From the NCBI RefSeq assembly GCF_057098645.1, contig NZ_CM169472.1: a stretch of 64,000 nt of DNA; one strand, given 5' to 3'. The notes under the pieces are model-generated. The model saw only the letters and a program-made list of their open reading frames with translations. It searched no databases and was not told where the DNA came from. The translations under genes and the position numbers were made by a program. Below are positions 8,790 through 12,050 of this stretch, one piece after another (positions within the stretch are counted from its first letter, which is position 1; each line of letters begins with the position of its first letter).

Positions 8790-9497
8790 ATGAAACCCGT
8801 CGTGCTGGTGGTGGATGATGACACGGCTATCTGCGCACTGTTGCAGGACGTGTTAAGTGAACATGTCTTTACGGTTTCAGTCTGCCATACCGGACAGGAG
8901 GCCATATTGCGTATTGAGGGCGATCCTGACATTGCGCTGGTGGTGCTGGATATGATGCTACCCGATACCAACGGCCTGAGGGTATTGCAGCAAATCCAGA
9001 AACTGCGTCCGACATTGCCGGTGGTGATGTTGACCGGCATGGGCAGTGAGTCTGATGTGGTGGTCGGGCTGGAAATGGGCGCGGATGATTACATCTGCAA
9101 ACCGTTCACCCCGCGGGTGGTGGTCGCACGACTGAAAGCGGTGTTGCGACGGGTTGGTGCGCTGGCGGTTAATGACGAGAAAAGCGCCGGGCTGTCATTC
9201 AATGGCTGGTATCTCGATACCATGCGCTGCCAGTTGCACAATCCGCTTCAGCAACATGTCGAGTTAACTCAGGGCGAATATGGCTTGTTACTGGCACTGG
9301 CGCAAAACGCGCGTCGGGTATTGAGCCGCGAGCAGTTGCTGGCGTTCACCCACAGCGACAGCGTGGAGGTGTTTGATCGCACCATCGACGTATTAATCAT
9401 GCGCTTACGACGCAAAATCGAACTCAACCCGCATCAGCCGATGTTGATTAAAACTCTGCGCGGTCTGGGGTATGTCTTCGCTGCCGACGTGCATTAA
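8790..9497 (+). CDS. OmpR/PhoB-family response regulator (receiver + winged-helix)
   Basis: VLVVDDD...LDMMLPD receiver motifs and C-terminal ...TLRGLGYVF winged helix; start at MKPVVLVVDDD with GGAG upstream. Confidence 0.85.
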   Translation: MKPVVLVVDDDTAICALLQDVLSEHVFTVSVCHTGQEAILRIEGDPDIALVVLDMMLPDTNGLRVLQQIQKLRPTLPVVMLTGMGSESDVVVGLEMGADDYICKPFTPRVVVARLKAVLRRVGALAVNDEKSAGLSFNGWYLDTMRCQLHNPLQQHVELTQGEYGLLLALAQNARRVLSREQLLAFTHSDSVEVFDRTIDVLIMRLRRKIELNPHQPMLIKTLRGLGYVFAADVH

Positions 9498-10495
9498 TCC
9501 GACATTTCTGTTTGCAGCTCTTCCAGCGTTTTCGCCCCGTCGATGGCATTGGCGCATAACAGGCTTGCCCGCGCGCAGGCGTGTGCCAGTTTGATGCTCT
9601 CGGTAAGCGTCCAGCGTTCATGGCAGCCATATAAAAATCCGGCACAAAATGCATCGCCCGCGCCGACGCTGCCGATAATTTCCCGTTGTTCTAACTTTTG
9701 CGAAGGGATCCACACGCTGCCCTGTTCTGGGGTCTCTCCCCACGCCCCTTCCGGGCAGTGGATCACCACCCGCTGGCGCACGCCCGCATCTAACAGTTCA
9801 CGCGCGGCGGCAGCAATATGCGCGATATGCGGTTCGCCGTTGGGTAACCGAATTTCCAGCCCGCTAAACTCCCCGGCCTCCAGTTCGTTAATTACCAGAT
9901 AATCCAGATGGCGCAACGCGGGCAGCACCAGCGGCTGATAACGCGGATCGCCCTTACGGGAGACCAGGTCGAGTGAGGTTTCAAAGCCAGTATCACGCAT
10001 TTGCGCCAGCAGGCGTGCGCTACGGGTGCCGTAAACATCGTCCGGCATATCCAGGCTGTCGAGCAACAGTAAATAGCCGAGATGGAAAATCTTCATGGTG
10101 TTATCGAGCTGATCGAACGCCGGAAGATCCAAAAGTCTGTTTGCACCCGGCGAATGGAAAAACGTCCGCTGCCCGCTTGGGTCTGTCATCACCTGCGACA
10201 TCGACGTCGGGGCAAAGGTAGTGCGCTGCACATGCTGACGATTGACGTGATATTGCTCAAGCATCGCCATGATGTAATCGCCGTCGCTGTCCTGACCGAT
10301 TAGCCCAACCGCCTGTAACGGCAGCCCGGTGCGCATTTTCGCCAGCGTCAGCAGGACGTTAAGCGGCGCACCGCCGGTGGAGCGTTCGCTGTGGGTGATC
10401 TCCGCCAGCCAGCCGCGCTCTGGCCACTGGATAATCTGATGGACGTGGTCAACCAACATATTGCCTGCGGCGATAATCCCTTTACGCTCCATCAT
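9494..10495 (-). CDS. pfkB/ribokinase-family sugar kinase
   Basis: 333 aa; C-terminal GAGDAFCAGFLYG signature of the ribokinase/pfkB family; last gene of the island operon. Confidence 0.85.
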   Translation of the reverse strand: MMERKGIIAAGNMLVDHVHQIIQWPERGWLAEITHSERSTGGAPLNVLLTLAKMRTGLPLQAVGLIGQDSDGDYIMAMLEQYHVNRQHVQRTTFAPTSMSQVMTDPSGQRTFFHSPGANRLLDLPAFDQLDNTMKIFHLGYLLLLDSLDMPDDVYGTRSARLLAQMRDTGFETSLDLVSRKGDPRYQPLVLPALRHLDYLVINELEAGEFSGLEIRLPNGEPHIAHIAAAARELLDAGVRQRVVIHCPEGAWGETPEQGSVWIPSQKLEQREIIGSVGAGDAFCAGFLYGCHERWTLTESIKLAHACARASLLCANAIDGAKTLEELQTEMSD

Positions 10496-11352
10496 GCCTG
10501 CCCCGCACTGCCAAAAATACGCATCTGTTGTGCAACCGTATCGCTGATGGCGGCTTCCACTGCCAGCAGTAACTCGGCAAACTCGTCATACATCGGCTGA
10601 CGGTGCGCCATTCGGGCCTCAACGGCAGCCAGCGCCGCTTGCGACATGCCAGTGTAGAAATTGATTTTGTGGATACCCAGTTCGATGGCGCGGCGGAAAT
10701 CGGCATCGCTAATCCCTGAGCCGCCGTGTAATACCAGCGGGATAGCAGCCTGCTGGCGGATAGCGTCGAGGCGCGGGAAATCGAGTTTCGGTTCGCCGCG
10801 ATATTTGCCGTGTGCATTGCCAATCGCCACGGCCAACGCGTCAATGCCGGTACGGTCGACAAAATCACGCGCCAGTTGCGGATCGGTAAACAGGGATTCA
10901 TCGGCATGACCATAGAGCGCACCGCCTTCGTCGCTACCCACCGCGCCCAGTTCAGCTTCTACCGATACGCCAACGGCATGGCACATTTTCACCACTTCCC
11001 GCGTCTGGCGGACATTTTCTTCATACCCCAGCGTGGAGCCATCAAACATTACCGAGCTGAATCCCAGCCGCAACGCTTGCACCACCGATTCAAAATGCAG
11101 TCCGTGATCGAGATTTAACACCACCGGAATGGCATGACGCGCCGCTTCAAATTTCACTGTCTCGACCAGGGAATCCAGCGAGATATATTTAAAATGTACT
11201 TCGGCAATGTTGATAATAAAGGGCGAACGTTCTTGTCTGGCAGCAGCAAACAAGGCGCGTAAAAAGTGCGAGTCCAGCACATTAAACGCACCTAACGAAT
11301 AGTGATGTTCGCGGGCATGTGCCAGCCCTTCAGCGAGACAAATCAATGGCAT
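10492..11352 (-). CDS. Class II (metal-dependent) ketose-bisphosphate aldolase, FbaA/GatY/KbaY family
   Basis: 286 aa; LNLDHG and HGGSG motifs typical of class II TIM-barrel aldolases; 4-nt overlap with kinase start. Confidence 0.85.
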   Translation of the reverse strand: MPLICLAEGLAHAREHHYSLGAFNVLDSHFLRALFAAARQERSPFIINIAEVHFKYISLDSLVETVKFEAARHAIPVVLNLDHGLHFESVVQALRLGFSSVMFDGSTLGYEENVRQTREVVKMCHAVGVSVEAELGAVGSDEGGALYGHADESLFTDPQLARDFVDRTGIDALAVAIGNAHGKYRGEPKLDFPRLDAIRQQAAIPLVLHGGSGISDADFRRAIELGIHKINFYTGMSQAALAAVEARMAHRQPMYDEFAELLLAVEAAISDTVAQQMRIFGSAGQA

Positions 11353-11366
11353 AACGTTATCCTTAT

Positions 11367-12050
11367 TCAGCGGAACTGGCGGTATTCGTTACACAATACC
11401 AACTGTGCAGGTTCGTCTTCGTCAATCAGGTTGTAGCGGTCCAGTGGCTGTAAAAAGTGGTTATCGTGGTCGTCGTCATTGACAGAAGAGACTTCGCCAA
11501 CCAGAACATCGCCAAAGCCGGTTTCCGCCCAAAAGCTGTGATACAGGCCGGGCGGCAGGCAGATACTTTCGCCGGGAGACAGGCGCAACTGAGTGCCTGC
11601 AGTATGTTTCTGGCGGCAGCCGTCTATCACCACCGTAATGTCACTATCAGCCGTTTGCTCGTTACTATCGGCATTCCACAGTTCAACAATTAAATTACCG
11701 CCGCCGCGATTGATAATGTCCTCACGCTTACGCCAGTGAAAATGCATTGGCGTGACCTGCGCATCGCGCACATGCATGATCTTCTCGGCGTAACATTTCA
11801 CATACGGCATTCCTTTTGCTGAGCCGTTACGTAGGGTAAACAGCGTCAGCCCGTGTGCTGCAAAGTTGTTGCGACCAAAAGCGGTAACATCCCAGCCGAG
11901 TTTAAGATCAAAAACCTCCTCCCACGCGGCGGTGTCGAGCTGCTGCCATTGAGCAGGCGAGAAACTGGCAAAGGGCGGCAGATGTACGTCATGTTGCGAA
12001 AAGAATTGCCGTGTATGGCCGAGAATGTCGTTTATAGCGGAGCGTTTCAT
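11367..12050 (-). CDS. Cupin-type sugar isomerase (D-lyxose/D-mannose isomerase family)
   Basis: 227 aa; resembles by recollection the D-lyxose isomerase characterised from E. coli O157:H7; cupin His/Glu metal-site residues present. Confidence 0.7.
   Translation of the reverse strand: MKRSAINDILGHTRQFFSQHDVHLPPFASFSPAQWQQLDTAAWEEVFDLKLGWDVTAFGRNNFAAHGLTLFTLRNGSAKGMPYVKCYAEKIMHVRDAQVTPMHFHWRKREDIINRGGGNLIVELWNADSNEQTADSDITVVIDGCRQKHTAGTQLRLSPGESICLPPGLYHSFWAETGFGDVLVGEVSSVNDDDHDNHFLQPLDRYNLIDEDEPAQLVLCNEYRQFR

Follow-up and report, generated by a model that had tools for sequence, protein, structure and literature searches.

The window analysed here, a stretch of 64,000 nucleotides from contig NZ_CM169472.1 (assembly GCF_057098645.1), contains the lmuKAIZYX operon of the enterohaemorrhagic Escherichia coli (EHEC) genomic island OI-167, together with the two-component system LmvK/LmvR, also named RbfS/RbfR. 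In the class II aldolase of this operon, LmuA, all three residues that bind the distal phosphate in related bisphosphate aldolases are replaced, and we propose that LmuA and the pfkB-family kinase LmuK constitute a ketose 1-phosphate branch. Free sugar would be imported by LmuXYZ and isomerised from aldose to ketose by LmuI, LmuK would place a phosphate on C1 of the ketose, and LmuA would cleave the ketose 1-phosphate, releasing dihydroxyacetone phosphate (DHAP) together with an aldehyde that bears no phosphate. Most of the flux would lead from D-mannose via D-fructose and fructose 1-phosphate to DHAP and D-glyceraldehyde. D-Xylulose formed from lyxose would mostly be passed to XylB, the xylulokinase of the host, and xylulose 1-phosphate would be a side route at most. 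The balance of the evidence tips slightly towards such a branch with mannose and fructose 1-phosphate as its main flux.

The locus and the generic route are already known. Yang et al. named the genes lmvK/lmvR and lmuKAIZYX, the latter for the kinase, aldolase, isomerase and transporter of lyxose/mannose utilisation, and their Fig. 3A depicts aldose import, isomerisation by LmuI, phosphorylation by LmuK and cleavage by LmuA (mBio 2023, PMC10128022). Hence, the original prediction, which had derived an isomerase–kinase–aldolase route from the window, refines a model already in print. A literature search brought up no work on LmuK or LmuA later than Yang et al. 2023. New in the present analysis are the loss of the distal-phosphate site in LmuA and the conservation of the module across phyla.

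The distal-phosphate site of LmuA

LmuA scores 572.8 bits (cut-off 406) against the NCBIfam model NF005284, a class II aldolase family named 'ketose 1,6-bisphosphate aldolase', and is 36–41% identical to the fructose or tagatose 1,6-bisphosphate (FBP/TBP) aldolases of family PF01116 (FbaA, GatY, KbaY/AgaY). It has the same fold as these enzymes and shares their zinc ligands, catalytic Asp and Glu and DHAP site. The zinc-binding histidines His83, His181 and His209 are intact, and the catalytic Asp82 in the motif 'LDHG' as well as the loop residue Glu142 are retained. The same is true of the parts that bind the phosphate of DHAP, namely HGKYR, HGGSG and Asn231, with Arg185 aligning to Lys184 of the Helicobacter pylori enzyme.

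The opposite end of the substrate site differs. The H. pylori FBP aldolase binds the 6-phosphate through Ser49, Arg259 and, from the partner chain, Arg280 (PMC10665668). A check of the H. pylori sequence located these residues in 'ASEG', 'DTDLR' and 'FDLR', respectively. The equivalents in Thermus aquaticus are Ser49, Arg257 and Arg278, the FBP aldolases of Bacillus and Staphylococcus retain the Ser and the Arg of a 'DPR' motif, and GatY and KbaY carry Thr50, Lys236 and Arg257. In LmuA, by contrast, the alignment places Ala50, Ser237 and Phe258 at these positions, so that none of the three distal-phosphate ligands remains. In addition, the stereo-control position, which is Asp, Asn or Ala in the FBP/TBP aldolases ('N-x-[DNA]-T'), is occupied by Tyr233.

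These losses are shared by all 24 class II aldolases whose genes adjoin that of an LmuK-family kinase; they come from Enterobacteriaceae, Bacteroidales, Clostridia and Bacilli, replace 'SEG' or 'TPG' by 'AE[VIL]' and are without the arginine of 'DPR'. Two characterised PF01116 members that were included in the comparison, SqiA and YdjI, likewise lack this arginine, and both act on ketose 1-monophosphates. SqiA, in which Ala replaces Arg280, shows no activity on FBP; it cleaves sulfofructose 1-phosphate (PMC10665668). In YdjI, annotated as octuluronate 1-phosphate aldolase, the region of the 'DPR' arginine is deleted.

Since the catalytic and DHAP-binding parts are kept and the distal ligands are lost, LmuA should make or cleave DHAP adducts but should be unable to hold a second phosphate in the manner of the FBP/TBP aldolases. 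From these alignments we infer that LmuA is a ketose 1-phosphate aldolase. Despite the NF005284 match, the distal phosphate site that distinguishes a ketose 1,6-bisphosphate aldolase is absent, and the locus should therefore be kept apart from the bisphosphate aldolase systems. The name 'ketose 1,6-bisphosphate aldolase', which has spread through RefSeq, is probably a misannotation in the case of LmuA.

Isomerase LmuI and kinase LmuK

LmuI matches the D-lyxose/D-mannose isomerase model NF051472 over its full length (438.4 bits, cut-off 350) and is essentially identical to PDB entries 3kmh and 3mpb, the D-lyxose isomerase Z5688 of O157:H7 (E 4e-160, residues 1–227). Others have reported that it converts D-lyxose to D-xylulose and D-mannose to D-fructose. 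D-Lyxose isomerase (D-LI) enzymes take several aldoses (PMC8378251).

LmuK belongs to Pfam family PfkB (PF00294, E 1.3e-35). In the alignment of its family, Gly41, Gly42, Gly278, Gly280 and Asp281 are invariant, which comprises the catalytic GAGD motif and the Gly-Gly switch. Compared with the kinase specificity classes (ribokinase, fructokinase, 1-phosphofructokinase, IolC, tagatose kinase and others), LmuK stays below every curated NCBIfam equivalog cut-off, the best being IolC_N with 73.6 bits against a required 300. It forms part of a distinct pfkB subfamily, for which we collected 322 cluster representatives at E ≤ 1e-30. An AlphaFold2 (AF2) model of LmuK has a pLDDT of 95. Its best PDB fold match by Foldseek is E. 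coli YdjH (3in1/3h49; sequence identity 24%), and the top PDB sequence match of LmuK is YihV. The purified enzyme consumes ATP with fructose, its only reported substrate, in an assay coupled to pyruvate kinase and lactate dehydrogenase (PMC10128022). We infer that LmuK phosphorylates C1 of the ketose.

Kinase-linked loci across phyla

The genomic surroundings of LmuK relatives were compared in 80 loci from species-representative genomes, with neighbouring genes clustered. A cupin of the D-LI family adjoins the kinase in 24 of these loci, either as a short form, which matches Bacillus subtilis YdaE and a Thermofilum enzyme, or as a long form matching NF051472. An LmuA-like class II aldolase likewise adjoins the kinase in 24 loci. 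Both coincide in 15 of the 24 kinase–cupin loci, distributed over Enterobacteriaceae, Bacteroidales, Clostridia and Bacilli. In four further kinase–cupin loci (L044, L051, L068, L079) a class I aldolase of the DhnA type takes the place of the class II enzyme and is accompanied by a Gfo/Idh/MocA oxidoreductase. Thus, an aldolase of one class or the other is present in about 80% of the kinase–isomerase loci. The occurrence of either class beside a single kinase argues that the module serves to cleave the monophosphate formed by the kinase. The original prediction had reasoned from a single kinase to a ketose monophosphate as substrate of LmuA. This logic is strengthened by the lost distal ligands and by the aldolases in other phyla, although the scheme as such had already been published.

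The loci also point to the substrate. Genes for GH92 alpha-mannosidases and one GH38-like gene flank the trio or the kinase–isomerase pair in L014, L018, L032 and L069, which stem from Bacteroidales of the gut and rumen and from a single Christensenella genome, and this context indicates mannose. XylB is encoded in three kinase–cupin loci (L044, L080, L084), which suggests that xylulose has a kinase of its own; in the host of the island, xylulokinase is presumably the obvious sink for D-xylulose. To our knowledge, the ketose products of all known D-LI enzymes are 3S ketoses, the configuration that is made and cleaved by aldolases of the FBP/TBP type. Taken together with fructose as the reported LmuK substrate and a transporter, LmuXYZ, with about 60% identity to an ABC system for mannose (PMC10128022), these features favour fructose 1-phosphate from mannose over xylulose 1-phosphate from lyxose as the probable intermediate. 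No recurring partner for the aldehyde (FucO, AldA or a triokinase-like protein) was seen near the trio; an iron alcohol dehydrogenase occurs in L020 only.

That LmuK and LmuA represent a widespread but so far unrecognised, fructolysis-like bacterial module, i.e. a 1-kinase for ketohexoses or ketopentoses that acts with a class II aldolase (or one of class I, DhnA type) and with a D-LI enzyme, is a generalisation that we put forward tentatively and to which we attach just under even odds.

Two other gene associations were observed among the 80 loci. One is conserved in Verrucomicrobia, Bacteroidota and Rhizobiaceae (L044, L051, L066, L068, L079), where an LmuK-family kinase occurs with a D-LI-like cupin, a Gfo/Idh/MocA oxidoreductase and a class I aldolase of the DhnA type. 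The other is clostridial (L043, L048, L056, L062, L071, L072) and unites an LmuK-like kinase with an AraC regulator, a NagB-like protein, a deacetylase similar to LmbE/BshB1 and an enzyme resembling mannitol-1-phosphate dehydrogenase; an LmuA-like aldolase is often present as well. Its make-up is reminiscent of a route for amino sugars or polyols that is as yet uncharacterised.

Alternative routes

Several observations weigh against a ketose 1-phosphate branch fed mainly by mannose. The residue argument for LmuA is based on sequence alignment at 36–41% identity rather than on a liganded structure, and no activity of LmuA has been reported in the literature. On the side of the kinase, the published LmuK assay reads ADP only and is blind to the carbon that is phosphorylated (PMC10128022). 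The sequence matches of LmuK to C1 kinases and to C6/C5 kinases in NCBIfam and the PDB search are equally weak, and its fold match to YdjH is only marginally above those to ribokinases, which phosphorylate C5 and are practically equal. No aldolase is found nearby in five of the 24 kinase–isomerase loci (in one of them, L080, the contig ends at the kinase gene); these loci, like the three with XylB, are also compatible with a plain fructose 6-kinase. Finally, lmuKAIZYX adds little to growth on mannose or to mouse colonisation when compared with manA (PMC10128022).

The most serious alternative is that LmuK is an ordinary fructose 6-kinase. Mannose would then enter glycolysis via fructose and fructose 6-phosphate, and LmuA would be a spare or specialised FBP/TBP aldolase or would not be coupled to the kinase at all. 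The reported activity of LmuK on fructose (PMC10128022), the NCBIfam name that LmuA obtains above cut-off, and the loci that have no aldolase or that include XylB agree with this view. So do Asp16, Gly41–Gly42 and Asn46 of LmuK, which are ribokinase-like. However, LmuA and all its kinase-linked relatives are devoid of the three distal-phosphate ligands, and a dedicated aldolase would be pointless downstream of a 6-kinase. Moreover, a class I enzyme stands in for the class II aldolase in other phyla, which shows aldol cleavage to be part of the module, and the 4 nt shared by lmuA and lmuK point to coupled expression. We consider a 6-kinase unlikely, at somewhat less than one chance in four.

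The original prediction had featured D-lyxose as the substrate, with isomerisation to D-xylulose, phosphorylation to xylulose 1-phosphate and cleavage to DHAP and glycolaldehyde, as a natural counterpart of the engineered pathway. LmuI prefers or accepts D-lyxose, and growth on lyxose needs the island (PMC10128022). Besides having no distal pocket, LmuA carries the bulky residues Phe232, Tyr233 and Phe258 in that region, which may suit a short aldehyde. Growth on lyxose also needs oxygen (PMC10128022), as assimilation of glycolaldehyde presumably would, and our literature search yielded engineered pathways only and no natural route of this kind from lyxose. Single deletions, however, speak against this being the main function: loss of lmuI or lmuZYX impairs growth on D-lyxose, whereas lmuK and lmuA are dispensable (PMC10128022). 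Therefore, the xylulose 1-phosphate route is not required for lyxose utilisation. XylB beside kinase and isomerase, the mannosidase context, which indicates a hexose, and fructose as the only reported substrate of LmuK point in the same direction. As the main function of the locus, this route appears improbable.

The oxygen requirement deserves a separate remark. Strain EDL933 grows on lyxose aerobically and microaerobically but not anaerobically (PMC10128022), which is explained neither in that study nor by a route through XylB. The cause could be that use of an ABC importer leaves a low yield of ATP, or else that glycolaldehyde is formed.

We give equally little weight to a third possibility, namely that the kinase–aldolase branch serves another sugar converted by LmuI, such as 6-deoxy-D-mannose (D-rhamnose), D-talose or L-ribose, which would also be cleaved as ketose 1-phosphate. 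D-LI enzymes do accept several aldoses (PMC8378251), the hydrophobic replacements in the distal pocket of LmuA may suit a deoxy or short tail, and lmuKAIZYX is of little weight for growth on mannose in vivo (PMC10128022). Yet mannose and lyxose act as inducers of the operon, LmuK uses fructose and the transporter is close to a mannose system (PMC10128022), and no gene of the island indicates deoxy sugars. A sulfoquinovose pathway is ruled out: its isomerases belong to PF07221 or PF02952 and not to the cupins, the island has neither a sulfoquinovosidase nor a sulfolactaldehyde enzyme, and LmuI is a proven lyxose/mannose isomerase.

Comparison with known systems

In its proposed mechanism, the ketose 1-phosphate branch by analogy most resembles two characterised kinase–aldolase pairs, YdjH/YdjI and sulfofructose kinase/SqiA. 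As in both of these, the aldolase gene lmuA adjoins that of a single kinase and its product is devoid of the partner-chain arginine. YdjH and YdjI of E. coli K-12 are likewise a pfkB kinase and a PF01116 aldolase from one operon. YdjH phosphorylates C1 of L-glycero-L-galacto-octuluronate and YdjI cleaves the resulting 1-phosphate. LmuA is 40% identical to YdjI; neither has the 'DPR' arginine, but its region is deleted in YdjI and substituted in LmuA. The systems also differ in that the ydj sugar is an eight-carbon uronate rather than a hexose or pentose and that the ydj cluster has no cupin isomerase. The Embden-Meyerhof-Parnas pathway of sulfoglycolysis (sulfo-EMP) follows the same scheme, with an isomerase, a C1 kinase and a class II aldolase, SqiA, that is inactive on FBP (PMC10665668). 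SqiA and LmuA have both lost the partner-chain arginine (Arg280), and on the kinase side the resemblance includes YihV as the top PDB sequence match of LmuK. SqiA is not among the 20 PDB matches listed for LmuA at E ≤ 1e-20.

The chemistry that we propose for LmuK and LmuA would also be that of mammalian fructolysis by ketohexokinase and aldolase B and of the engineered xylulose 1-phosphate pathway. Ketohexokinase is a ribokinase-fold enzyme; aldolase B, in contrast to the zinc-dependent class II enzyme LmuA, is a class I Schiff-base enzyme.

Layout and distribution of the island

Three minus-strand open reading frames (ORFs), lmuK, lmuA and lmuI, exactly fill positions 9494–12050, and family matches confirm the pfkB kinase, class II aldolase and cupin isomerase that had been predicted there (Table 1). 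Apart from the overlap of lmuK and lmuA, 14 nt separate lmuA from lmuI, which in turn lies 54 nt downstream of lmuZ. This tight packing, together with the published co-transcription of all six lmu genes in reverse-transcription PCR (RT-PCR; PMC10128022), bears out the view of a common operon behind an rbsACB-like importer. It was also correctly stated that such an importer delivers unphosphorylated sugar, and, as predicted, there is only one kinase: neither the ORF list nor the RefSeq annotation contains a second sugar kinase in the island. For lmvR the start at 8790 was taken from RefSeq (the longest ORF begins at 8772), and for lmuX the RefSeq start was used as well (the program-made ORF extends to 15613).

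Table 1. Genes and control region of the lmu/lmv locus in the window.
Feature	Positions	Strand	Length	Product or description
lmvR / rbfR (Z5684)	8790..9497	+		OmpR/PhoB-family response regulator; NCBIfam OmpR/VirG/TorR-like matches
lmuK	9494..10495	-	333 aa	pfkB-family sugar kinase
lmuA	10492..11352	-	286 aa	class II (zinc) aldolase, FbaA/GatY fold
lmuI (Z5688)	11367..12050	-	227 aa	cupin D-lyxose/D-mannose isomerase
lmuZ	12105..13046	-		periplasmic sugar-binding protein, RbsB-like
lmuY	13065..14039	-		ABC permease, RbsC-like
lmuX	14036..15556	-		ABC ATPase, AraG/XylG/RbsA-like
lmuX/lmvK divergent control region	15557..15669	none		published lmuX promoter and LmvR footprint
lmvK / rbfS (Z5692)	15670..17934	+		hybrid sensor histidine kinase

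The assignment to OI-167 follows from the insertion between yjcS and yjdP/phn, from the regulator and hybrid kinase that enclose six genes and from the gene order K-A-I-Z-Y-X. The published island is that of O157:H7 EDL933, in which the eight genes, their order and their position are the same, whereas the window represents an O145:H28-type genome: its DNA matches chromosomes of E. coli O145:H28 with 100% identity, and RefSeq carries the same gene annotations for these. Among 5426 complete E. coli genomes the locus is present in 421, each time as a single chromosomal copy. The nearest copies outside E. coli are found in Citrobacter, with about 89% protein identity. The G+C content of the island (0.56–0.58, window positions 9000–18000) exceeds that of the yjcS side (0.45–0.55), and the end of the island adjoins a pseudogene fragment of a GNAT acetyltransferase (18075–18278). 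Both features fit a horizontal acquisition.

The 3' ends of lmuK on the minus strand and lmvR on the plus strand converge and overlap by 4 nt (9494–9497). A consensus scan detected no terminator-like site between them; the same scan, run for promoters and terminators over the island, gave nothing above shuffled expectation and also missed the published lmuX promoter. With convergent genes and no terminator-like site, transcription of the induced lmu operon should run antisense into lmvR.

Regulation

One and the same two-component system has been published under two names with two ligands, as RbfSR sensing riboflavin (Liu et al., PNAS 2022, PMC9860305) and as LmvKR responding to mannose; in a 2024 review the two names are taken to denote a single system. 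LmvR/RbfR activates the lmu operon and the locus of enterocyte effacement (LEE) (PMC10128022, PMC9860305). Mannose and lyxose induce the lmu operon via LmvK/LmvR, and the footprint of LmvR at the lmuX promoter covers −41 to −62 relative to a start site mapped by rapid amplification of cDNA 5' ends (5' RACE; PMC10128022). Deletion of lmvR, lmvK or the entire operon impairs growth on D-lyxose, and a manA mutant grows on mannose only if lmvR is overexpressed and lmuKAIZYX is present (PMC10128022). Thus, both sugars that the original prediction had put first among its candidates, D-lyxose and D-mannose, are inducers and have growth phenotypes.

The best family matches of LmvK and LmvR are VirA/VirG- and TorS/TorR-like, and the binding protein LmuZ also matches TorT and ChvE models. 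This combination suggests that LmvK/LmvR may sense sugar with the assistance of a binding protein. A nearly identical structure of LmuZ exists (PDB 4rwe, E 3.7e-167), deposited only as 'Sugar-binding transport protein' with a title that names no ligand.

Implications

Published work ties the island to EHEC virulence regulation and finds it nearly restricted to O157:H7 and O145:H28, hence its medical interest. If LmuK were merely a 6-kinase, the locus would be an ordinary accessory route for mannose. If, on the other hand, LmuK and LmuA make and cleave ketose 1-phosphates, bacteria would possess a natural equivalent of both fructolysis in the liver and the engineered xylulose 1-phosphate pathway, a ready enzyme pair would be at hand for engineering that involves glycolaldehyde or ethylene glycol, and the label 'ketose 1,6-bisphosphate aldolase' would be wrong for the LmuA family. 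In EHEC, the module would also yield fructose 1-phosphate, the effector of the regulator Cra. Should the module prove to be widespread, Enterobacteriaceae, Bacteroidales and Clostridia would burn free mannose (and lyxose) to DHAP and glyceraldehyde via fructose 1-phosphate, or to DHAP and glycolaldehyde via xylulose 1-phosphate, bypassing ManA and phosphofructokinase.

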